A DNA stretch of 61,198 nt, filler included, from Sphacelaria rigidula (taxonomy: Eukaryota), in assembly GCA_964200075.2 (NCBI GenBank). It is 5 parts of 5 records of this genome, joined end to end, with 100 filler letters (N's around TTAATTAATTAA, not from the genome) between each part and the next. Parts side by side here need not be neighbours in the genome. Positions count along the whole stretch, not along the records: positions 1 to 12,160 come from CAXNAA020004065.1; 4 more parts are not named here. One strand, given 5' to 3'. The translations under genes were made by a program, and so were the position numbers. Below, in pieces: positions 2,562 to 49,039 of the stretch; within the stretch, counting starts at the first letter, position 1, and each line of letters starts with the position of its first letter. The notes beneath the pieces were generated by a model, which saw only the letters and a list, made by a program, of their open reading frames with translations, was not told where the DNA came from and searched no databases.

Positions 2562-5500
2562 ATGCCGACCGTGACCGTACTCACGAGGATGATTCGCGGC
2601 ACAGATCAGGTCCATCGCGCGTTCACTCGCGCTCGAAGAACGCCGATCATGCAACCGCGCGCTCCTCTCCTGCTGCGCATCCGTCATGCCGCCGTTATTT
2701 ACGCAATGATAATACTGTACATGCTGACGACATCCGAAATATATTCGGACATGTCACCAGCTCTCAAATCCTCAATTGAGGGATTAAGCCGCAACTCATC
2801 GCACAACCGACGACCCCGCAATGACCGCGAACCCCCGTCCCGTTCTGATGCTGTGACTATCCGCTCCGTAAAACAACGACTGACAGATCTCGAGCGAGAA
2901 CTGATAAGATCCAGAATGGAGAACAAGGAAGTAATCACCGCCAAGACCGCCAAGACGGCTAAGGAACATACAGGAGTTGCCGCCACTGCTGCTGCCGCCA
3001 CCACTGCCGCTGCCGCCCCTGCTGCCATGGTCGCTGCGCCTCCTGCCACGACCACTGCAGCCACGGCCCCCACGACTATTGCCGCCCGGTCTGCCGTCGA
3101 TACAGATGCTTATAGTGGCCCAACCATCGGTCCTGTCACGGATGCCCCTGTGCCCCCGCCCCATTCTGTGGAGGATCTCCCTCCGTTCGGCGACGAGCAC
3201 TGCCTGACCGGCCTCCTCTCGAGGTTGTTCAGAAATCGCCCCCGTGCGGAACAGTTGGGGCTCATAGAAGATTATGCCTCGCAAGCGCCAGCGCTGGCCA
3301 AGGACATAATCGAGCAACAACGGGAGGCCTACGTCGCTGCTGCACGCCTCCTAGCCGAAGAACACGCGGACAAGCATCGAGACCTTCAGCAGCAGGCTTC
3401 ACGCGCCCAGACCACGACTCCGCGTCTCAACGCGCCCTGGAGGAGGATCGCACTGCTGTTCTGGCGGCCCAGAGGCGCGTGAAGGACCTCGAGGGCCATG
3501 TCCGACGGACTGCCCACGAAGCGGCCACGTCGGTGGCCCGCCTAACTAACCATCAAGCCTCTCCGCCGTCCACCGGCAACCCGTTCGGTGGTTGCTCTTC
3601 CCGGCAGCCCACGACCGATACGTCGACTTACGTTATTCCACGTGAGTCCGACAACCCGCCGTATGCTGCGGCCGCTGCCGTCCCCAAGACGGCCCCAACA
3701 CCCGCGCCTCGTGCAGCTAGCTCGGCGGCCAATGCCAGCCCGATACCAGGCCTGCAACTCGCGCCTCACGAACGAACGTGGCTTTTCCGTTCCGCGGCCG
3801 ATTTTACCGGCCCGTTCGCCAGGAACAATCACCTACGCTGCTCCTGCCAAGCTTGGGACTTGGTGTCACAACGCCTTCACCACGTTATTGGTCTTTACGT
3901 GGACCAGGAGGGATTCTTCCCCAATCACGGCGTACCGTCCCTCACCTTGGGTCAACTTGTTCTGCATATGACTATCGGCGACAACCCCGCTCACCAGCAT
4001 TACATCGACACTGTAATCGGTCTTTTTGCGGCACTACGTGCCGCTTACCCTTCGAATTTCGGCGCCACCACCGCCGACGATGACGAGGATGACGATGGTT
4101 GGACTCCTACGAGTGCCAACGGCAGAGGCAAGAGCAAGAACCGCCGGTGGAATGACGACGACAACGATGGAGGAGGCTCACGCCGCCGCCATGGCGGCAG
4201 AGGATCCTCGGGCGGTTCCGGATCCAACCGCCCGGTCCACAATAGCCGCAGCTCGACTGGGAAGAAAACTGAAGGCAGTTCTTCCGCATCTTCCTCTCCA
4301 GGTTGGAACCGGTCTAGCACAGACCTGCCCCCCTCGGGTTCGGTGACACCCAGGCAAGTGGTACCTCAGTTGGCCGATGTTTTTTTGACACACATCCTCG
4401 ACGGCTTCCTCGCCGAAATGGATCCGGATCGTGCCCAGGGGAAGACAGGCCCGGTATAGCTCTCTGGTCTGAAAAGGCATCTGATAGGTTATTTTGACAA
4501 AAGTGACCAAGTAAGCGCCATCCAGAGGCTGAGTTCTTTTGCTGTCGCATCGGATGTCCCCTTCGCGGATTATCTCCGCGAATATAAGCTTTTGGTATCT
4601 GGTACTACGGGTGTCGGACGCCAAAACGGGCCGAGCGATGCAATGTGTCAGACTTACGTTTGCAATAGCGTTGCTCAACAGCATCCGGGTCTGATGTCGT
4701 CGTTGTTTCCGGGTGTCTTGGCTCATCGCGAGGTGCCTTACGCCTCTGTTGATGTTATGTGGTCTGCTTTTGTTCACCAAGAAGGTAATCTACCGCCCGC
4801 TATACGTGGCAAACCTTCTACGCCTCTGCGTTCACAACCTACGGTTGTGTCCTCCGCTCACGCCCAAAGATCTCGCGGCAGGAATTCGAGTTCATCTCGC
4901 GCTTCATGGACCCCCGACTCGTTCGCCGGTTCAGTTATGCATGTTCAAAGTAACATAGATCCATTCAGTGCGAGTGTTAATGGTTGGCCCATTTCCGAGG
5001 AAACTTGAGATGATGTTTATTTGACCTCTAGAACGGCATTCATTACAGATGATCCCCATTTGTGGAACCCAATTCTTTCGTCTCCTGCTAGACGCAATGC
5101 CTTCAAGAGTCATGCCAACAGTTGCATCAACTTTAGTGTTCAAGGCCACAGTATGCGCGACTGGGACAGTCCATTCATCAATGCCTTTGATCTCATGAAC
5201 CCGGAATTGCAGGACAATGAACCCGCGTGGCGCCAATGGCAAAAACGCATGCGGAACTATCGCCCACCGAACCGAAAGTATCGAAATAATTCGAATCCAC
5301 GTGGCTCAAGAGCTCTTCTCGCGGCCGCAGACAGAACAACAATAATTCAACCCCTCGCCAGAACGATCATCATTCTCGCGACAACAAACGATTCCCTCAA
5401 AGACATCAGCGGACGGGGCCGACACACAACTCGAACCCCAATACCAGAAACCCTGGTACCTTCACTACGGATCGCGTAGACCCATTACGTGCCGACGCCG

Positions 5501-6490
5501 GCGTTCTACGGTCTTCCGCGCCGCCGACAGCAGTAGCGAAGATTCTTTCATCACAGTCCGCGGAGTCCGTAACTGAAATTGTTCACCCGGCTCCCCCGGC
5601 AATATGCAGGAGCGTTACAGACGGCTGTTCAAACCGACCTCCGTCTTCAACCTCCACAAACTTTTCAATACAGCCCGCAGAGCCTGCTACTAGGATTGTC
5701 CACCCGGCACCCCCGGCGCTATGCAGGAACGCAACTGATGGCCGTTCATATTGACCCCTGCCTCCACCCCTCCACGCACCGCGCAACAGTTGTGTTACCG
5801 CGCGACTCAGACCGGCCATGAACTTGGCCCTTCAGTGCCGAGTATAAGTCTGAGGTGTGGGAGGACCAACCGCCAGTTCCTGAGGCAAAGGCTTCCCTCA
5901 GCGACCGCACGCACAGGTAGTAGCAAGCTTTTTTCAGCTGACCCAAGTGTGCTGATTTGAACTTGACCACATCGGATCATTTAATTCCCAATCAGTTAGA
6001 TCGAGCTCCGTCCCTGCGATTTTCAACACTCACGGACCTACCTTCGGCCGTTTCGAATAACAACCGCCCCAGCATACCTTCGGCTATGACCCACCAGCCA
6101 AGCTTGTCTACGGAAAGCAGCCCACAAGTTTCGCTCCGTCATGCCCCAAATGCTGACTCCATCCACCCGACTGGACGCAGTTGTGGTTTCATCCCAAAAT
6201 GGTTTGAAAGTTCCCCGACCTTTGTCATGGCGAAAGAGAAAGCCCCGTAAGCATGCCCCGAAGGACGCGCGCGCATCATCACGTACACCTCTTTGGAGCG
6301 GAAATCCTCGACCTCAATATCTCCAAAATGCGACGACTTTGAGCTCGACGGCTCTGTCAAGTATCACGGAAGAAACTAAATCAAATATTTCTGACGTCAC
6401 TACTTCTTCAATTCACGACGCCAGCCCCGCACAACCTGGATCCCCCTCGGACGGCGATCGCTCAACCAAAAACGATAATTTACGAAATCG
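2562..6490 (+). pseudogene. Gag-like / N-terminal region of the gypsy element, broken into ORFs 2562-3482, 3479-4459, 4592-5008, 5021-5479 etc.
   Basis: Abutting ORFs linked by frameshifts and stops lie upstream of the protease. They include coiled-coil-like and Ala/Pro/Gly-rich stretches and a ~117-bp tandem duplication at 5584-5757. No clear CCHC knuckle. Confidence 0.6.
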
Positions 6491-6493
6491 CTA

Positions 6494-9400
6494 ATGTTCA
6501 CTCTGGCAATGCCACACCTGGAAATAATATACCATCCACCCCCTCCTCTGGTGAGAAATCTGACCCACCGGCGGATCACCCGCCATGCGTCTTTGCCGTC
6601 AGCCCCGCTGATCCTGACCTATTTACTTTGCCGGAACATGGTCCGGATCTTGTCAGCGGTTAAGTGTCTGTGGATCCATCCGGCCAATTCCACTACACGC
6701 GTTGCGATTCACTCTGGTCCAAACGCTACCACGCCTACGAAATGCGTATCTTTGTTGGACAGCGGCAGTCTGCAAACATTTGTTCGACAATCAACATGGA
6801 AACACATTAAACAGACTGGTGCCGCTACTGCAGCTTGCGAAACCACCACCCAACCTCGAGTATGGGGCGGTTTTGATGATTCTGCCGCACCCCTGACAAC
6901 ACGTAAATCCGTACGTCTCAGTGTGCAATTTTTTCACAATACCACTCGTTCTGCCAGCCTGGCAGTGTTGGCATACATTGTCCCCGACAGCACAATGCAC
7001 CACGCCATATTATTGGGCAGAGATAGCTACATGCGGTTTGATAAACGCATCTACCGCACGCTTCCACCACTATCGTCATATTCCACGCCTCGTGTAGAAT
7101 TCAACCTCGAGCGCTTTGGTACTCTCCACGGCGCCCTGGCCTACCAGAAGAATACTCAAGCAACCGGAGCTGCTCACCACCTACGATACAACGGCAGCGT
7201 TGGTATTACACTCTCCGACGATCCTCAACTTTTAGAAGTTGCACTAGTTCGCCGAAATGGTATGCCAGCACTTACGGGACATTATCTTGCCGAAATGTTA
7301 CCCCGTATTGGGGCACCAGCCGACACAGAAGATTTTGTCTCGGCGGAACAACAACTCCTCCCTCTTACAGGTCATGCTAACTTGGAACCCGGCGATATTT
7401 CAGGAATCGCCGCTGCTCCCAGGATGCACATCCCACTCGAGACGTGCGTAACAGAACCTGCCGCGTCAAACGCCACATCTGCGGCGGAGTCAGTCCATTA
7501 CGTCGATGAACCTTATATGGACCTCGCCTCAGTGACTCCACCCCAGGTCCACACCGTGGTTCCTGGCCACTCAAATTCCGATCCTCCTGCTGAAGTGCTT
7601 CAACGCTCATCACCAGATCCTCGGAATATTTTCTTGCACATGTGGAACCAACTGCCGCCGCACATGCGTGACATCAATTTTGACCTTCATGGGCCCGGCT
7701 GGGAGGCGGCAGTCATCCGAGAACTCAGTGATGTCCTGCTACAGTACCAAGACCGGTTTTCCCGATCCAAGACCGATTTCGGGCATTGCAAAACGCTGCC
7801 CTTTGAGGTTACCCTCCAACCCGGCGTCTCGCCGATTTCTTCTCGGCCATATATTTACCGGACAAACCCAATCCTTACCAAGGAGGTTAACGCCACCTTG
7901 GCTGCATACTTGGGAGCGGGATTAATACAACATTCCTCCTCTCCTTGGGCCTCGCCCCTTGTGGTCGTTCCCAAAAAGGATGGGAACATACGCAAAACCA
8001 TGAATTACCAACGGTTGAACCGCTTCACTGTGGTCCGAAAACTCCCAATTCCCCGCATTGATGAAGTCTTCGACGCCTTAGGCGAAGGAAAACGTTTCAG
8101 CACCTTCGACCTCGCTTCTGGATTTTTTCAGAATTCTCTACACTCTGACACAGTTCCACTGACGGTTTTTTGTACCTCGTCCGGACTCTACGAATGGCTT
8201 CGAATGACACAAGGCGCCGCCACTGCTCCGGGATGCTTTCAACGCCTAATGCAACGCGTCACCGAGGGCCTCGAGCACATCATCATGTACCTGGATGACG
8301 CTATCGCTTCCAATGCCTCACCTATTGCACATATCCGCACTCTACAAGAATTTCTCTCTTTCCTACGCACGCACGATTTGAAACTGTTTCCATCCAAAGC
8401 TCGTCTTGGTGCGACTGACTTGGATTTCTTGGGGCATTCCATTTCGGCAGCAGTCCTGCATCCGGATACAAACAAAGTCAAGGCGATGACTGACTTACCG
8501 ATGCCAACTGACATTCCTCAACTTCGCTCGTTGTTGGGCGGGCTTTCCTACTACCGCCATCTTTTGCCGAATTCATCTGAACGGACTCGCCCCCTTACTG
8601 AGTTACTCAAGAAAGGAGCCGTGTTTCCCTTCACGACCAAAATGGAGAATATCACCCGCGAATTACTCAAGGCGCTCATCGAAAAGCCGGTACTCTGCTT
8701 TCCTGATTGGGAGGTAGTACGAGATGGCTCCCGCCTTTTCCAACTCCACACTGACGCCAGCAAAAACGGATTTGGAGGGGTTTTGAATCAACCTTAGATT
8801 GATGGCTTCATCCGGCCCATCCTCTATATCAATCGCGCTACACTGCTCAACGAGACCAATTGGAGCCCGCTAGAACTGGAAGTCGGAGTAATCACTTGGG
8901 CCATTAAGTGCCTTCGACAATAAACAGGGCATTCTATAAAATGAGGTTGATCAATGAAATAAAGTTTGAGGGGGCTAGCCAGTATGCGACAAAAACCCGA
9001 GGGGCGTGGTCAATGATCAAATGACTAAGGCAAGCCACAAATGAGTACGCCCCACCCCCCCCGAAAATGATCGAAGGCACTTGCGGAGGGTACTTCCCTC
9101 GGGTTTTTGTCGCATACTGGCCAGCCTCCTCAAACCTCATTTCATTGATCAACCTCATTTTATAGAATCCCCTGTTCATATCTGTTTCACGTGCCCTTTG
9201 AGATCTATACGGATCACGGAGCACACGAACAACTCGCCAAGGTTGGCGAACACAATCCGCCTGTACAACGAGGGTCGGAGTTTCTAACAGCATACCAGTA
9301 TACCATTAAGCACCGTCCAGGCAAAACTAACGGGAACGCTGATCTTCTTTCTTGCTTACCCCTGCCGCCTACGGCCGCAAATTCCAGCCCGGCTTGTCGT
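6494..9400 (+). pseudogene. Gypsy pol: aspartic protease, reverse transcriptase, RNase H (interrupted by a MITE)
   Basis: Protease LLDSGS (~6752-6770). RT SSSPWASPLVVVPKKDG, FDLASGFFQ and YLDD (8288-8299). RNase H LHTDASKNGFGGVL, then TAG at 8795-8797. The frame resumes LRQ|YLFHVPFEIYTDH and HRPGKTNGNADLLS after the MITE. Confidence 0.95.
8921..9180. mobile_element. MITE with ~80-bp terminal inverted repeats inserted in gypsy RNase H
   Basis: AACAGGGCATTCTATAAAATGAGGTTGATCAATGAAAT...CCCGAGGG (8923-9003) is the near reverse complement of 9096-9176. TA/ATA is duplicated at the junctions, and removal restores CAA TAT CTG (Q-Y-L). Confidence 0.9.
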
Positions 9401-9958
9401 TTAACGGAACCCGATGAACCTGGAATTTACGCGATTAGACGTTTTTCAACACCCGTTTACGCCCTCGACCTCCAGTGCCCGGAAACCAGTATGCATATGG
9501 AAGGACCTCGCCCTCTACCATATGACGCCGTCTTGGGTGGGTTAAAACTCACTACCTCCGATTTTGGCGATTTCCGCACTTTCGGTACTCGCGCGAAGCT
9601 CTTCGCGGAGACAACTCCAGTCACCCACCTAATCTCCGACAACACGCGCTCCCGGTCTGCCGACCGCACCACCCCGAGTGCCCCGCCGCCAACGATAACA
9701 CCTACAAACCCCACGAGCCACGCAGCACAATTTCCACGGACCAGCGCGCAACGCTCCGCGAAAACTTCTGCAAGGTGCACCACGCGCCACTGACAACCTT
9801 CGACGCGCACTGATACAGTCCCGCCGCCCATAAGGGCGCCGCCAACATCTACCGCTCCCGAGCACGGAGCTGACGACGTAGCTCCTGCTTCCGGGACAGA
9901 TATTGACGTCGGCATTTCTGCCCCGTCGCCTATTCCCCCGCCGCCTGCCCCACCATCT

Positions 9959-11912
9959 TTGGTCGGCTCGCCAGCGGAAGGTCAACCACGAGAGTTTCTC
10001 GCCAGCTACTCTCACCATGATTGGGCTCGGGAACAACGCGCAGAACCGCTATATCGCGCAGCCATCCGGTACTTACAACTCGACTGTCCAGTCCCTTTTC
10101 CATCCACACTTCTGGCCCCAGTTGGCACACTGCCACCACCAGCTATTTCTGACGTATACGAGCTCGTGCGTAAAGGCACCCTGTTTACTACGGATGAAGG
10201 TGTGCAACTACCCGTGCGCCGGCCCACGCCTTTGACAGGCGCAATTTCCGCCTCAACCACGGGACGTCACGCACGACTACTCGATGACGAACCGACGCAC
10301 ACATATATCCCATTATTAAGGCGCCCCTGGGTCATGAAAGGCTGCCACACAGACTTGTCATGTCTCCTTGGCGTCACCCGCAGCCTAGCGCTCTTGGAAC
10401 GCTACTGCTGGTCGATTGGCTTGGAAATTTCTACCTTCTTCTGGATTCGGCGATGCTTCAAATGCCAAGCCCGAAAGACTTCACGACAGACAGTACGCTG
10501 ACCCGTCATCTCTATGGGACTCCCCAACGAGCCTGGCCACCTTGTGTCCTTTGACTACTTTAGCCCTCTACCGACCACAGGTCGCGGCAACACCTACATC
10601 TTACTCTTCACTGACCGCTTCAGCCGCCACGCATCCATGTACGCGGTAACCGCCGCAGGTTTCACTGCCGCCGGAACGGCCGACATATCGGTCCACGATT
10701 ACAGTAAGCACTACGGTTGCCCAAAGCGACTCCTTTCAGTCAATGACCAGAGATTTTGCTCCGATCTCTCTGATGAGCTTCACAAGCTCCTGGGCATCCG
10801 CAAATTTGCCACGAGCGCCTACCACCCGAACGGTAACGGTGTTACCGAAAGAGTTGATCACACCATGGCTCAAATGCTCTCTATGGTTGTCAATGACCGC
10901 CAAAATGACTGGGACCTACATCTCTCGCACATCATGTTGTCCTACAACAACTCGCTTAACGCCGGCACAGGCCGTTCTCCGAACGAACTCCATCTTGGAC
11001 AAAATTGTCCCTCAATTGGACAGGACCATTCAAAATCTTGACAGTCGGACCATCGTCATCATCACCGGATGATAAACCCGTTGGTGACAAACTGCTCTAT
11101 CTCGACTTGCCTCGCGACTTCCAGGGCAAGGACACCAAACCCCGCGTCTCCGTGCACAGATGCAAACCCTGCACGAACCCGCATGATACAAGCGACATGC
11201 CCAAGTACCTGCCTGCCTGACGGACTCACACAGTATGTTCTCAACAGCTACTCGACCAAGTCCCCGCCCTACCACGTTACAACCGACGACGTGACGGAAC
11301 AGCCCCTCCGATTGACAGTGTCCACCATCTCCGACCACCAGATAACCCGTGATCGAGGTGGTAAAATCGCTGTCATGTATAAGACACTGGCACGGTCTCC
11401 GGAGCGCGTCTTGGGAACGCGAATCCGACCTTCAAATGCACCGCCGTGCAATCCTCCTGTACTGGACGCAATCCCAACATCAGTATCTTGCTCACAACAA
11501 GAAATATCGCAACATGCGTCGTGGCGCAGCAGCCCGCGAACTTCACCGCGATTAGGGACAACGCTTTGTCGCCGATGGTTACGAGGGTGTACCCACCGAG
11601 ACTTGTAAGACGAAGTTCTTCGCAAACCAGCGAATACTACCCAAGTGCCGCTACCTTTGGTTCGAAGGCAGCGACAACCTTTAGTGGTTGGGTCAGACCC
11701 ACTCCGCTTACCTGGTTTCGGCCGACACATACACCGTGCGCTTCATCGATGACCGTGGACCCATACAGCTCAAGCTCCGGCCAGCACTATACACCACCAG
11801 CCCATCTGCACCACGCGGATCTTGGTGCCTCCAGCGCCTCAAGTCCAAGGGACTTCGCCGCGGCCTCCAGCGCAACATCGACCACACCCACGACGTCCAC
11901 GTCCCGCTTTGA
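9959..11912 (+). pseudogene. Gypsy integrase with Zn-binding region, DDE core, GPF motif, chromodomain and C-terminal Tudor-like module
   Basis: H..CFKC Zn region, core SFDYFSP..FTDRFSR..NGVTERV, WTGPFKI (~11017-11037), and chromodomain VSTISDHQ..MYKT/HWHGLRSASWERESDL (11312-11433, frameshift near 11385). A further domain YLWFEGSDNL*WLGQ..YTVRFIDDRGP follows. Confidence 0.88.
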
Positions 11913-12160
11913 ACCACGCTCTTTCGTCGCAACTGTTGCCCCTCCCCCATTTTTCCTGTAGCATTGTTTGCCCTCCCTTCTCCACCAAGACCCTCTTCTA
12001 CGATATCACAAGAGGGCGATCTACATCGGACGACGATCGAAAAATTACGGAAGACGACCACCATCTACGACTGTTGGAGCTATAGTATCCCCTTGAGTGA
12101 TGCTACGGTAGGGGTACAGAAATAATTTCTGAGGTTAGAATTGTTAGGAGCCCCTTATCT

Positions 12161-12260
12161 NNNNNNNNNNNNNNNNNNNNNNNNNNNNNNNNNNNNNNNN
12201 NNNNTTAATTAATTAANNNNNNNNNNNNNNNNNNNNNNNNNNNNNNNNNNNNNNNNNNNN
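12161..12260. other. Artificial contig linker (N44-TTAATTAATTAA-N44)
   Basis: Six-frame stop spacer within Ns. Identical linkers occur at 24421, 36681 and 48940. Confidence 0.98.
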
Positions 12261-22092: not shown

Positions 22093-22534
22093 CTCGAAGA
22101 ATCAGCCTGAGCATTTGGCGATGCGTGAATTTCGGAACATATATACCTTAACCCTTTTGGAACCTTCCCCTCCTGTCCCCTGACCAAACGCCTTATTATG
22201 CGAAGCCCTGACGAAGAGGAGAACATGGAACAGAATAGGCCGACGGCAACCATTTTTATAATGGAAGCCCTGTTCGTCTGTTCACTGCGGTCAGTACGAT
22301 ACCATGTATGCGACTATTGGGTGCGTATTGCGGAAGGCATTTGCTGATGACAGTTTTTTTCTTTTTCGTGAACCAGCCTGTAGAGGCATCTCAAACTCGA
22401 GTTTCCGGATATTTTCATCCGTAAGACCAGCTCTAACGAGAATCGATCAAACTTCCTCTTGAAAATTGTCTCGTGGGCCCTTCTCCGTAGTTTTACCCGC
22501 CCGAAAACAGAGCTAGGCGGATGATGGCGCCTTG

Positions 22535-22790
22535 GGATGACTTGCTCTACTCGTTGAGACCGTTCCAGGGCAACTTTGCGTTTCCCGCTCGCAGCAGTTT
22601 TGTTTTTGGTCGAACTTGCATTTTCAACAACAAACCTCAAAGTGATCAAAATACTGGCGGCTTCCTCTCTGTTTTTGCATCACCTGGCCGTTCGCTATCG
22701 AAAATGCAGGTTTGACCAAAGATAACACTGCAGCCAGTAGGAAGCGCAAAGTTGCCCTGGAGCGGCTTCAACGAGTAGAGCAAGTCATTC
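22535..22790. repeat. Fold-back MITE-like inverted repeat
   Basis: ATGACTTGCTCTACTCGTTGAGACCGTTCCAGGGCAACTTTGCG pairs with CGCAAAGTTGCCCTGGAGCGGCTTCAACGAGTAGAGCAAGTCAT. Related copy at 31766-32018. Confidence 0.8.
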
Positions 22791-24420
22791 CGAGGCGTTG
22801 ACATCCGCCAAACCCTCTTTCCGGGCGTATAACGACAGAGGAGGACCCATGAGGCAGTTTTCGACAGGATTTTGAACGGCTCCCATTAGAGTTGGGTGGT
22901 CGCAGCTTGGTTTTATGGTATCACTTGCGTTCAGTATAGCGTTCCCGAGATTTCCCGGGGGGGTTCGGGATCGCAAGTCTATATTAAAACGTAGTGATTA
23001 CACCAACACAGGGTGGAGCGGAAAAAAACGGGAAGGAGTGTACATGCTATAATGTGGTCATTTTCACGAGGTACTGAACCCAGCTGGGCCGTGGAAAGAC
23101 AAAAGGAGTTACCATCATGTATTCTGCTTATTTCTCTGCCGATGACTTGCAGTGTGCGGTTAACATGTACGGTAGTGGGCGGGGATGAAGAACCGGTATA
23201 TAGGCAATTGAACTCGGTAGCTGAGAACAACCCATAATGTGTAATTGAGTATGCAGCGGCAGCTGCTGCTGCAGTCGGAGAGGCGTACTGCATTGTACTG
23301 TACTATACTGTATGCGTGAGCGCCGCAACGCTGACATACCCTTCGAAGAGAATTTGCCGCATGTAACAAAGAGGGAAATGGCGGCCCACACTGACCACAA
23401 AGGGCTGTGTGGCAAGGTGATGAGGACAATGATATCATCCAAAGCCACAAGTGGCGGGCGGCCCGTCGGTCGCCGCATCCTGCCGGCAGCTCTCTACCGC
23501 GACCCATCAGATATACATTACCTAATGCGCACCGTGCACCTGGAAATAGATTGGATGAAACCTCCGGTCTTCCTCATAACCCTGCGGCTACATACGCGGA
23601 TTTTCAGCAACACGTTACTGTTTCGTGCAGACGCCAGACACGTCATTCTTAACGAGACTCATTGGTCGTTCTGGAGGCCCGGTCTCAAAGGGTTCAAGTT
23701 CGTTTTTAGCCTGGCACAGCTCATACTCGTTTCGTTCAATGTAAAGTACTGCAGATTTTGCAGTGGGCAGCTGGTACAAGCCTAGTACGTGCTAAGCACG
23801 TGTTTCTTCACTTGATTCTAAGCCAATAAATTGTTCTTATATCCCGCGAAAAATCTGGCCTCCGGCGCTACCCCCCCCCCCAGGCTGCCACACACACGGT
23901 CTGCGGTCGATCAGAAGCACTAGCGCAGAGACCTTACAACGATTCACATGACACACATACGCAGTTGGGTTGAGGATTAGGGTTGACATTATATATTATG
24001 TCTTCCCCTTGTTTAAAAAAGCCCCAAATGACCAGAATCCCCCTCGCCCCACATATATAGGACCAACTCTAATGGCAACGACTCTCGATTTTTTTAGACT
24101 CAAATTCGCAAACTCGAAATCGGGGGGATCTTTTTATGGTACAGAGAGTACCGTATCACAGATGTGTGAAACAGTTTTGTACAAAAGCGGTTATTTTCTG
24201 CATCAGAGTGGTACTGGGTACTCGTGCATGAAGCCGAAGAGCAGGCAGGCGGTGACTAATCCTTAGGGTACAGCGTCGCACCGCGGTACCCTAGGGTAAT
24301 ACAGTGCATGGCATTCCATCAGTACTGTACATGATGGCACAGTCGGTATTGCGACAAGAGGCCGCCGCGCCCCGGTGGTGTAATGGTCCGACTGTCGCCA
24401 TTAGGGTGGAGAGAACGGGG

Positions 24421-24520
24421 NNNNNNNNNNNNNNNNNNNNNNNNNNNNNNNNNNNNNNNNNNNNTTAATTAATTAANNNNNNNNNNNNNNNNNNNNNNNN
24501 NNNNNNNNNNNNNNNNNNNN
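24421..24520. other. Artificial contig linker
   Basis: N44-TTAATTAATTAA-N44. Confidence 0.98.
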
Positions 24521-24868: not shown

Positions 24869-27800
24869 CTGTCGGTACCACTCTTTGATGGAGTTAAGGG
24901 TGTTCTTCCTAGACAGGTCGAACATGAAGAATATCGCCACCGCGTCGTTGCATACCTGAGAACAACACAACGAAACAGGGTGGGGGGGGGAAGGGGAAGA
25001 GAAATGAATAAAAAAAGAGACATAGATGAGCGAACAAGCGTACTGTCAGCATAAAACGAACACGCCATCGTGTCACACAATACACATACAAGTGAATGGA
25101 ACAACACGAGCACCGCACTTCACCTACTCACGTCAACTTTGTCCCCTGAGCACAGCACCAAGCTTCGTTGGTGTCAGCACGATCTCCCACTGACAGCCCC
25201 CGCCGAACAACCAAGGGTTAGGGGTAACTCCTAGACCGCGAGTGCAGGTTAGATGCTGAATCGGCATCAATATTAACTTGAAAAAAGTATGCGTGATCTA
25301 GATGGACTACCCTCGCGATTCAAGGGTTTAACCCTTACCCATACTTGTAGACCGCGAGGGTAGTTCATCTGTAGATTTGATGGATTGATTGTCGCACTTT
25401 AACTGACCCTCCAGGGGTCCATCCGTGGTCTCATGATAGACGTACCCGAGAAAAACGAAAATGAAACACGCTCTGAGAAAAAATCGACACAAATTTCACT
25501 TGAATAAAAGTATGCATGATCCGGATGGACTACCCTCGTGGTCTAAGGGTGAAGCCGGGGCTTCACCCTTTCAGCGTCAGGGTAGTTGACGATACGTGGA
25601 ATTGGGATCTTTTCACACCCTAGATGATGACAATAGCTTACATCGTCAGAAATTATACTGCTTACGGTGTCAACTATTGCGTCTATTGTAATAGAAATAT
25701 AATCCATACCGTACGCAGTACATTTTTTTACAATGCAATCCACTGTCCTCATCCAGGGTGTGAATGTTTCACTCTACTTTTCAGGTGCAAATGATGCTGA
25801 TTCCGCAAATCGCCCAACCCTGGCTGTCAGAAGGTTGACCAAAGAGAAAATTGAGGACGGCATTGTGACAATGACATTGATAACCAGAGTGACGAGCAGC
25901 CCATGCGTGGCAACCATTTTACATTCCCTTTCGCGTTCTCAGTTGAATAAATTGCACGTGTGGGCTGTTCGTTTTTGCTGACAGCATGCTTTCTTCAAAT
26001 GAAGGTGATGCCGATTCGACGGATGACCTACTCTCGCCGTCTAAGGGTTAGCCCTGAGCCTGCGAGGGTAGCCTGTCCATCTGGATCATGCATGCTTTCT
26101 TCAAGTGAAAATGATTCGGATGTAACAGATAACCTACTCTCGCCGTCCAAGGGTTGACCCCTTTGACCGCCGAGGTATATCATCTGTTGAATCGGCACCC
26201 CCAGATTTCGCTTGAAAAACTTAATACACGACCCAGATAGACAGGCCACCCTCGCTATCAACGGGTTGAACCCAAAGACTCCTGGTCTTTCATGCGAGCC
26301 AACGCGAGCGAGTGTGAGCTCAATTTTTCAACTGCAAAAAATGCCCGTAGTGCCGCACTGCAGTAACTCATCCCCCTTTACCACGCCCTCGACAATCGAA
26401 AACATTATCCAGAAGTGTTCTGCGCACAGTATCGAACATACTTGCCTATAGCAGTAGACAAAAGATTCGGGAATAAGAAATTAATTATTTGAATCGGGAT
26501 CGTCTTCGTTGGGAACGTTATAATAGTGAGTCAACAATGTTTTCGTGGAATTGAGAGCAGAGGATACGATTCATAGTGACAAGCCGTCAATAACGGAATT
26601 AAAAGTTCAAGTTCCGGAATGCCCCTCCACGAGGCCCGATACGCTCCCTGTAGTATCTTTCCACTGAAGCTCTTGATATCCGTTGAGTAGGGTATCGACG
26701 TGCAGGTGGAAAAACACGCCCGTGTTACAGGCAAAGAGCACACACAGAATGAAAAACTGGTCAAGTGTAAGCACATGATAAAATCCACTTTCCTCTCTAT
26801 CTCACACAAAAAAATTGTTGAGCCCCCGATGACCCACCGCGCACTTCAGCACCCAAGCAAGGAAGGGGCTAACGCTTTCACCGCCGTGGCGGGGCCATCA
26901 ACTGAATCGGCATGCATCACTTGACTTGAAAAATGAGTGCAACGAGGGCCGTGTCTGATCGAAACAATAAAATAAAAAAAAGCGGGAAGGGGAACGAGCG
27001 TCGCCGCAGCCATGGACCTGCCTGGCCATCAATCAACATGCTGCTTTTCGACGCTTGTTCTTTTCCTACTTATTTATATATTAATTTATTTTTGGTCTCG
27101 GTAAGACACGGTCTAGATTCAGGTCGTGTCTTAGACATTAGTTTTCGATCGAAAATGTGCGGTGGGAAGCAAAAATCTCGATCTGAGGCCATTTCTTCCG
27201 GTTCGTATTTCGTTTGGCTCGTATTTTCCACTTTTAGGACATTTGACAAGGTTTTTGACCCCCGAACAGGGAAAATCGCCACCACACGTCTTGGACACTT
27301 TGTATCACCTCACCGAGAGGAGCCTAGCCCACTTCTCCGATTCGCTCGGGTCGTAGATTTCGAGAGCGGCCTCTGGACAAAAATACGAGGAAAACATATA
27401 TTGCACAGTCTGTAGGTATTTTCACCCGTGTCCAAGACGTGTAGTGGCGATTTTCCCTGTTTGGGGGTCAAAAACCTTGTCAAATGTCCTACAAGTGGAA
27501 AATACGAGCCAAACAAAATACGAACCGGAAGAAACGACCTGATAGGTCGTAATTTCAACTATTGTCGAAACATTTCAAACGCAATTTTCGACGATGGTTA
27601 AAATTACGATATGTCAAACCGGGATTTTCGTTTTCCACCGCACATTTTCGATCGAAAACTGATGTGCTAAGACACGCCCTTTCACGGTCTACTGTAGACC
27701 ACGAATCAACTCGTGTTGAAAGGGTTAACCCCTTCACCCCGAGGGGTGGGTAGCGTATCTGCGTCATGCGTAAAATTTGAACAGCGAATATTGATTTCGA

Positions 27801-36680: not shown

Positions 36681-36780
36681 NNNNNNNNNNNNNNNNNNNN
36701 NNNNNNNNNNNNNNNNNNNNNNNNTTAATTAATTAANNNNNNNNNNNNNNNNNNNNNNNNNNNNNNNNNNNNNNNNNNNN
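36681..36780. other. Artificial contig linker
   Basis: N44-TTAATTAATTAA-N44. Confidence 0.98.
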
Positions 36781-48939: not shown

Positions 48940-49039
48940 NNNNNNNNNNNNNNNNNNNNNNNNNNNNNNNNNNNNNNNNNNNNTTAATTAATTAANNNNN
49001 NNNNNNNNNNNNNNNNNNNNNNNNNNNNNNNNNNNNNNN
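48940..49039. other. Artificial contig linker
   Basis: N44-TTAATTAATTAA-N44. Confidence 0.98.

Follow-up and report, generated by a model that had tools for sequence, protein, structure and literature searches.

The window analysed here, a stretch of 61,198 nucleotides from Sphacelaria rigidula (assembly GCA_964200075.2), contains at positions 6683-11912 a dead copy of a Ty3/Gypsy-type long terminal repeat (LTR) retrotransposon, belonging to a family that occurs in brown algae. Behind the GPF module of its integrase the decayed reading frame encodes a cassette of about 200 residues, in which a chromodomain, a long helix and a Tudor-like five-strand barrel are predicted to follow one another. 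Alignments and structure models demonstrate the existence of this cassette, its conservation and its two predicted folds. With moderate confidence, we favor the reading that it tethers integration to chromatin.

The integrase tail lies on the plus strand at 11234-11912 and yields a sequence of 225 residues (P0003), in which X stands at one frameshift and at two TAG stops. To build it, TAG was translated as X, a single four-letter step at about 11384 was likewise given as X, and no letters were supplied at the breaks. Frame 2 reads ...LTVSTISDHQITRDRGGKIAVMYKTL..., or in a longer reading ...QPLRLTVSTISDHQITRDRGGKIAVMYKTL, and frame 3 reads ...RHWHGLRSASWERESDLQ... / ...IRHWHGLRSASWERESDLQ...; about 75 residues further on the latter reads YLWFEGSDNL, TAG and WLGQTHSAYLVSADTYTVRFIDDRGPIQLKLRPALYTTSPSAPRGSWCLQ, and it is ended by a TGA at 11910-11912. 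The GPF motif, LNWTGPFKIL, lies upstream in yet another frame. The first-pass annotation of this region had described a tail in three pieces, with stops at 11553 and 11682 and a frameshift near 11385. Translation recovered every string that it quoted in its place; both stops were read as in-frame TAG codons, the frame changes inside the chromodomain at about 11384-11387, and three stop-to-stop open reading frames (ORFs) share the tail (11346-11555, 11556-11684 and 11685-11912). Its suggestion that repair of the stop at 11682 would restore a tryptophan is borne out by an alignment of P0003 with 10 relatives (A1), all 10 of which have W in this column. The stop at 11553 sits on a variable column of A1, and the frameshift X stands where the relatives have two residues. 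Given that P0003 finds intact proteins with a best e-value of 3e-59 in 5.8 billion sequences, and that tblastn alignments with intact polyproteins run colinearly from 6683 to 11894, this reading of the tail is, on sequence grounds, far beyond chance.

At E<=0.001 the same search, with 1196 candidates, recovered 21 longer proteins, which are 38-50% identical to the query and cover 68-98% of it. As to whether intact relatives keep the tail, on which the first-pass annotation had staked its proposal, 20 of the 21 contain it whole, through the SWCLQ strand and beyond, and the remaining one (P0020) ends within the barrel at the end of its record. Inspection of the C-terminal ends of all 21 revealed none that stops after the chromodomain. 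The relatives include Gypsy polyproteins of 1229-1660 amino acids, and one 90% cluster with 197 members reaches 2184 amino acids. When the tail of P0004 (159 residues) was used alone against 1.84 billion representatives, 393 matches were obtained at E<=1e-3, 167 at E<=1e-10 and 12 at E<=1e-30. One relative, P0005, bears the EukProt label of the brown alga Nemacystus decipiens; its gene model is a chimera whose N-terminal part is unrelated. In both the P0005 and P0035 gene models, N-terminal parts that look host-derived by eye (membrane-transporter-like and cysteine-rich WSC-like) are joined to integrase-tail fragments, indicating that brown-algal proteomes hold the tail within chimeric predictions.

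The columns of A1 that are invariant in the chromodomain include W, E and D, and those in the barrel include W141, D146, W150-L-G, Y165, R168, D171, G174-P and S-W-C-L-Q. To compare regions, the last 700 residues of 10 proteins were aligned and mean pairwise identities were computed for six lineages (P0004, P0005, P0007, P0203, P0009 and P0013), while P0011, P0015, P0017 and P0198 were omitted as each is close to an included member:

Integrase zinc domain: 0.72
Integrase core: 0.67
GPF module: 0.69
Chromodomain: 0.64
Linker helix: 0.50
Stretch preceding the barrel: 0.33
Barrel: 0.54
C-terminal end: 0.36

By this protein-level proxy the barrel, at 0.54 as against 0.33-0.36 in its flanks and 0.67 in the core, is constrained well above its flanks and near the core. 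Thus, judged by these alignments, the cassette is conserved in intact polyproteins almost like the catalytic core. This bears on the view that the tail is not a functional domain at all, and that its conservation stems from recent common ancestry or from an overlapping cis-acting signal near the 3' LTR. While the copy in the window is broken and most matches of the P0004 tail are short fragments, many of the database matches being decayed, the invariant W, G, D, P and SWCLQ persist across lineages of 38-50% identity, the barrel is better conserved than its flanks and confidently predicted to fold, and the tail is in frame within polyproteins of 1621-2184 amino acids. We consider this view highly improbable, and the least likely of the alternatives weighed here.

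The fold of the first domain was obtained from an AlphaFold model of the P0004 tail on A1 (model 1; 11 rows), with a mean predicted local distance difference test score (pLDDT) of 73.2 and a predicted template modelling score (pTM) of 0.56. Its chromodomain consists of three strands (29-39, 45-53 and 60-63) and a helix (64-80), with pLDDT 81-92, beyond which the model continues with a helix spanning 90-107 and, from 139 to 201, a set of five strands. In Foldseek comparisons with the PDB, this chromodomain matched those of MPP8, HP1, cpSRP43 CD3 and Oxpecker with target template modelling (TM) scores of 0.64-0.78 and probability 1.0, and Swi6 more weakly (TM 0.43, probability 0.97). The A1 profile run against the PDB likewise drew in the Swi6 and MPP8 chromodomains (E 0.017-0.036), followed by PHF19 at about 0.3, and the Pfam Chromo model scored below E 1 in 7 of the 11 A1 members, the best at 7.6e-4. 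When the profile alignment with Swi6 and MPP8 was read on A1, the central tryptophan of the aromatic cage was found in 11 of 11 sequences. In HP1 the methyl-lysine cage consists of Y24, W45 and Y48 (PMC3350952). Cages that lack aromatics in the manner seen here have been described in 'shadow' chromodomains and in those of group II from plant retrotransposons, the ligand of the latter being given as unknown (PMC3350952). By its sequence, the domain is therefore best described as a chromodomain fold of this 'shadow/group II' kind, with only the central cage W.

The barrel was modelled with AlphaFold from P0025, a natural 166-residue fragment, on an alignment of 52 rows (A2), composed of 50 database proteins of at most 276 amino acids (from 95 rows covering the barrel) together with P0025 and P0003; longer polyproteins were omitted to limit the width of the alignment. 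This model 2 has a mean pLDDT of 84.3 and a pTM of 0.75, with block means of 90-97 over residues 51-150 and values above 90 in the barrel. Its strands span residues 83-87, 93-101, 108-113, 119-123 and 140-145; ahead of the barrel a further helix and strand are packed, and the loop before the last strand is longer than in solved Tudors. Among the Foldseek matches listed from the PDB, 31 of 37 were Tudor-type chains (Spindlin 11, PHF1/PHF19/MTF2 11, PHF20/PHF20L1 8 and SMN 1), which superposed mostly at a root-mean-square deviation (rmsd) of 1.8-2.4 Å over 44-48 columns with 16-27% identity, e-values of 0.01-0.09 and, for single-domain Tudor chains, target TM scores of 0.5-0.67. The other 6 rows were a plasmid relaxosome chain at 12.7-15.4 Å rmsd. 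The prediction thus yields the SH3-like or Tudor barrel that the first-pass annotation had anticipated, with five strands and with Tudors as its best solved neighbors.

At the sequence level, the A2 profile gave 10 matches at E<=10 among all PDB chains, of which 9 were PHF19/PHF1 Tudor domains (PHF19 at 0.015-0.023, PHF1 at 0.8-1.6) and one an SH3 domain; only PHF19 chains fell below 0.1. An Atlas search pointed to the PTM/DIR17 Tudor and to Spin-Ssty with scores of about 0.8 and recognition under the guide value, so these serve as leads only. In the alignment with PHF19, D-G-L-Y-Y-L-G-K-I corresponds to D-g-l-w-W-l-g-k-i and L-V-T-F-E-D to l-v-R-F-L-d, such that the second Y of YY falls on an invariant W and the F of VTF on a near-invariant F. 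Our reading of a cage from this alignment uses the residues that we take to make up the cage of PHF19. Aromatic and acidic residues (W, Y/F, D, WW, Y, F, DD) cluster in the barrel and are conserved, and from sequence a ligand pocket is plausible. We use the label 'Tudor-like' because of the ranking of PDB matches, the weak PHF19 profile match and the correspondence of motifs.

The barrel was also encountered outside Pol. Two proteins, P0057 (612 amino acids) and P0061 (828 amino acids), show homology along the whole of their lengths (29% identity over 672 columns, E 5e-59). In each, an N-terminal part rich in coiled coils is joined by an S/R-rich linker to the same Tudor-like barrel, which forms the C-terminus. 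Their barrel is far better conserved than the remainder, and neither has an integrase or a chromodomain. The N-terminal part of P0061 retrieved only itself from the protein collection, where low-complexity words crowded the candidates. Both could be gag/ORF1-like proteins belonging to another element, or they could have arisen by host domestication. A third protein, P0074 (626 amino acids), has an unrelated N-terminal part followed by the whole chromodomain-helix-barrel cassette without an integrase, and is either a gene-model chimera or a case of the cassette being transferred as one unit. Pfam searches with P0057, P0061 and P0074 returned nothing meaningful.

Several results weigh against a chromatin-reading cassette in a Gypsy element. 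Neither model had a PDB match at E<=0.001 in Foldseek. The 25.1-bit cut-off of the Pfam Chromo family (PF00385) was missed by P0003 (14.2 bits) and P0004 (16.7 bits), the two members whose bit scores were compared with it, and the cage of the chromodomain lacks its first and third aromatics, these positions being V/L/I and I/L, respectively, in 11 of 11 sequences. As for the barrel, none of the 52 A2 members reaches the cut-off of a Pfam family, the best e-value being 0.0018 for Agenet, so that each of the 5 Royal-family/SH3 families stays above E 0.001. The first PHF19 cage position, the W of C-R-W, is matched by a non-aromatic residue, with a conserved W-Y/F pair 2-3 residues before it on that strand (83-87, HFWYK, in P0025). 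Furthermore, when model 2 was compared with viral predicted structures it retrieved only uncharacterised small (phage) barrels, with similar e-values, and no retroelement or phaeovirus protein was among these matches. Scores alone can therefore not separate a Tudor from other SH3-like barrels. Finally, no pair of direct repeats that could be LTRs flanks 4400-12160. The match to Tudor/Royal-family domains proposed in the first-pass annotation hence holds for the predicted barrel fold and falls short in the family cut-offs for Tudor, Agenet and PWWP, in the first cage position and in the Foldseek e-values.

In light of these results, an alternative is that the barrel is an SH3-like extension of the integrase that binds nucleic acid or nucleosomes, in intasome assembly or non-specific DNA binding, and reads no mark. 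The C-terminal domains of retroviral integrases are SH3-like. Among the sub-threshold Pfam matches of the 52 A2 members an SH3 model is the most frequent (SH3_VIII-1_N 8, Agenet 5, PWWP 3, Tudor_5 1, Tudor_2 1); in A1 such matches were to Agenet (3 of 11) and PWWP (1 of 11). The incomplete Tudor cage and the generic viral barrels with like scores point the same way. However, the PDB contains many SH3 chains, and yet Tudor and Spindlin chains account for 31 of the 37 matches listed, while PHF19 Tudors are the sole profile matches below 0.1. The element also already has its own GPF module upstream, and the conserved WW/Y/F/DD cluster is more readily reconciled with a ligand pocket than with a basic face that binds DNA. 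We regard this alternative as unlikely.

A different possibility is that the cassette serves as a protein-protein adaptor, recruiting a host factor such as a chromatin protein or a methyl-arginine-bearing ribonucleoprotein component, like those bound by SMN-type Tudors, rather than contacting histones directly. Precedents are the tethering of the Ty5 integrase to Sir4 and of the lentiviral integrase to LEDGF. The presence of the SMN Tudor among the structural neighbors, and of the same barrel on non-integrase proteins with coiled-coil and S/R-rich regions, would be in keeping with such a role, as would the degenerate cage, which is typical of protein-binding 'shadow' chromodomains (PMC3350952). 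Nothing speaks directly against an adaptor, though the closest neighbors in sequence-profile searches are histone-reading Tudors; we rate it as rather improbable.

Returning to the favored reading, the cassette would tether the integration complex to chromatin and thereby bias where new copies land, by analogy with the chromodomain of the MAGGY retrotransposon, which binds H3K9me2/3 and targets heterochromatin (PMC3350952). The tether would bind a histone tail or a mark, or else some other partner bound to nucleosomes. The 'dual reader' of the first-pass annotation survives as two reader-like folds in tandem; as for the reading of marks, with canonical cages incomplete and one of three aromatics left in the chromodomain, this is something we infer and do not show. 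In brown algae, including Ectocarpus, 5-methylcytosine (5mC) is reported to be negligible, and Polycomb repressive complex 2 (PRC2) and H3K27 methylation to be absent (PMC12477816, PMC13076208), in accordance with the chromatin context given in the first-pass annotation. H3K9 methylation is reported as absent in Ectocarpus (PMC12477816), with H3K9me1 or H3K9me3 in only a few other brown algae (PMC13076208), and H3K79me2 and H4K20me3 are described as repression- and repeat-associated marks (PMC12477816, PMC13076208). The absence of 5mC, H3K27me3 and, in Ectocarpus, H3K9 methylation makes the target of a retrotransposon chromodomain in these algae a puzzle. Since the chromodomain cage is degenerate and the host group lacks the H3K9 and H3K27 marks, any reading of a mark may fall to the barrel, or the pair may bind a protein partner. 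A more elaborate proposal is that the cassette is a combinatorial reader that steers insertion to a kind of repressive chromatin special to brown algae (for example TE-rich regions with H3K79me2 or H4K20me3, TE denoting transposable element), in replacement of H3K9me targeting, and that it has been exchanged between integrases and the non-integrase proteins P0057, P0061 and P0074. This we consider doubtful; if true, it would mean that the H3K9me targeting of chromoviruses has been replaced among algae that have lost 5mC and PRC2 and, in the case of Ectocarpus, H3K9 methylation as well.

Integrase-fused readers are the clearest natural cases of chromatin-guided insertion, and a cage-poor chromodomain together with a conserved Tudor-like barrel is a candidate for rewired targeting. 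The two small domains could also act as probes of brown-algal chromatin states.

The intact polyproteins P0013, P0177 and P0198, in which Pfam detects the Ty3/Gypsy domain order RVT_1, RNase H, Integrase_H2C2 and rve, are colinear by tblastn with five blocks of the window: 6683-8920 and 9179-11002, which share a frame, 10999-11235 in another frame, 11213-11386 and 11385-11894. The features, all on the plus strand except the insertion, to which no strand is assigned, are as follows:

6683-8920: N-terminal part of Pol (protease region, reverse transcriptase, start of RNase H) in one frame; tblastn with P0177/P0198, 47-48% identity, E 0.0
About 7967-8443: RVT_1, Pfam E 7.6e-20; the RT_RNaseH_2 match is sub-threshold
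8920-9179: 260-bp insertion interrupting the RNase H coding region, resembling a miniature inverted-repeat transposable element (MITE-like), with 84-nt inverted arms
9179-11002: rest of Pol (RNase H remainder, spacer, integrase zinc-binding domain and catalytic core); tblastn with P0177, 42% identity, E 2.5e-121
About 10319-10483: Integrase_H2C2, Pfam E 2.5e-4, below the cut-off in this decayed copy
About 10526-10828: rve, Pfam E 2.7e-4, below the cut-off in this decayed copy
10999-11235: integrase GPF module in a different frame, with LNWTGPFKIL
11315-11471: predicted chromodomain, split by the frameshift at about 11384-11387; Pfam Chromo E 0.043 on P0003
11499-11552: predicted long linker helix (90-107 in model 1, 34-51 in model 2), followed by the TAG at 11553
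11652-11840: predicted Tudor-like five-strand barrel (YLWFEG..., WLG, YTVRFIDD, PIQLKL, SWCLQ), broken by the TAG at 11682
11841-11912: weakly conserved C-terminal end (mean identity 0.36; pLDDT below 50 in model 1) and TGA

Two stops, one deletion, one nested insertion and at least three changes of frame attest to the decay of the copy. A frame change additional to that in the chromodomain lies at about 11213-11235, and the deletion, at about 11002 just before the GPF module, removed about 100 residues of the integrase, residues 1271-1370 of P0013 having no counterpart. The first-pass annotation had noted neither this additional frame change, the deletion and the insertion nor the two missing cage aromatics of the chromodomain. 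The arms of the insertion (8920-9003 and 9096-9179) are 93% complementary with 92 nt between them, and their limits are exactly those of the gap that interrupts the tblastn alignment; no clear target-site duplication was apparent when the sequence around 8920-9179 was read. Pfam searches with the ORFs upstream of Pol (3000-5008) returned nothing that would define gag or the 5' end. On the other side, a run of N at 12161-12260 begins 250 bases past the stop, and hence the 3' LTR may be missing. In this run a pair of 44 N surrounds the 12-base TTAATTAATTAA, and the matching spacing of N runs points to three others of the kind at 24421-24520, 36681-36780 and 48940-49039. Lying about 12.3 kb apart, these look like an assembly or scaffolding linker and not biology, and the first cuts off the 3' side of the element.

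Other copies were sought in sequencing runs, 13 of which were listed, none of them recorded as RNA, and 11 of which had part of the stretch in question; four were compared at 90% likeness over 953 bases. Between 482 and 1896 short contigs per run covered these bases, which points to a family highly repeated in these runs. At the positions of the two stops a different letter, giving a sense codon, makes up at least 98% of the summed contig depth in every run, and at the frameshift place two extra letters occur in 3-6 contigs per run. Many contigs diverge from the window at 10998/11000, as expected if other copies retain the stretch missing in this one. An assembly error behind the stops and the frameshift was considered and set aside, multi-copy contigs giving no decision on it; regardless of such an error, the additional frame changes, the deletion of about 100 residues and the inserted element mark the copy as decayed. 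Elsewhere in the window two inverted repeats, at 22493-22832 (162-nt arms, 77% complementarity, 16 nt between) and 27186-27540 (113-nt arms, 95% complementarity, 129 nt between), are probably additional MITE-like elements, suggesting a TE-rich neighborhood.

What is new here is the tandem arrangement of a chromodomain and a Tudor-like barrel, and that both domains escape the routine Pfam cut-offs. The novelty is reduced by the report in 2025 of Tudor- and chromodomain-carrying Gypsy lineages in Ectocarpus (PMC12477816). That work describes four Gypsy lineages, three of them with a C-terminal chromodomain, among them ECR-1 and a lineage whose members, such as Gypsy-12_Ec32, have a NADAR domain at the N-terminus. 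It also describes Gypsy-10_Ec32, whose Pol ends in a Tudor domain; its authors call this element the first TE reported to carry one, and Tribonema minus has a homologue (PMC12477816, Genome Biol 2025). A literature search on integrases with chromodomain or Tudor domains yielded none that is described as having both; such a case could appear in Fig. 1C or the supplements of PMC12477816. Because neither domain of our family passes the routine cut-offs, the published division of Ectocarpus Gypsy lineages into 'chromodomain' and 'Tudor' may be incomplete.

Like our family with its Tudor-like barrel, Gypsy-10_Ec32 is a brown-algal Ty3/Gypsy element, and its Pol ends in a Tudor domain; as described, it is a separate lineage for which the available text mentions no chromodomain, in contrast to the tandem found here (PMC12477816). 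Gypsy-12_Ec32 of the NADAR lineage and ECR-1 share the C-terminal chromodomain of the integrase (PMC12477816, PMC11541908, bioRxiv 10.64898/2025.12.07.692804). They differ in that a chromodomain alone is described, the word 'Tudor' occurring 0 times in the available text of PMC11541908 and bioRxiv 10.64898/2025.12.07.692804, and ECR-1 keeps all three cage aromatics whereas our family keeps one. In P0177 (2184 amino acids), which has the same tail, Pfam detects a YbiA-family NADAR domain in the N-terminal part, at residues 205-354 (E 3.6e-48), as in the NADAR lineage of Ectocarpus. This links the tail to lineages of the NADAR/chromodomain type, not to the Tudor-only lineage. By tblastn no NADAR domain was found anywhere in the window, and P0177 aligns with it only from residue 449 on. 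The chromodomain lineages of Ectocarpus are reported to be related neither to chromoviruses nor to Chronos (PMC12477816), which renders the assignment to chromoviruses in the first-pass annotation doubtful. Chromoviruses such as MAGGY and Tf1, and those of plant group II, do share a chromodomain-extended integrase, and in group II the first and usually also the third aromatic are absent as in our family; theirs is a single domain with no barrel described behind it, whereas our family has one (PMC3350952).

The solved Tudors of PHF1/PHF19/MTF2, PHF20 and SMN, as well as Spindlin, resemble the predicted barrel in its five strands at about 2 Å rmsd, and the motifs D-G-x-(aromatic)-(aromatic)-L-G-K-I and x-V-x-F-x-D align with PHF19; they differ from it in sharing only 16-27% identity, and in the first cage position, which is shifted or absent here. 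Lastly, in the lentiviral system the PWWP domain of LEDGF/p75, a reader of the Royal family, tethers the integration machinery to marked chromatin. There the reader resides on a host factor and acts in trans, whereas the element described here would carry it within its own integrase.

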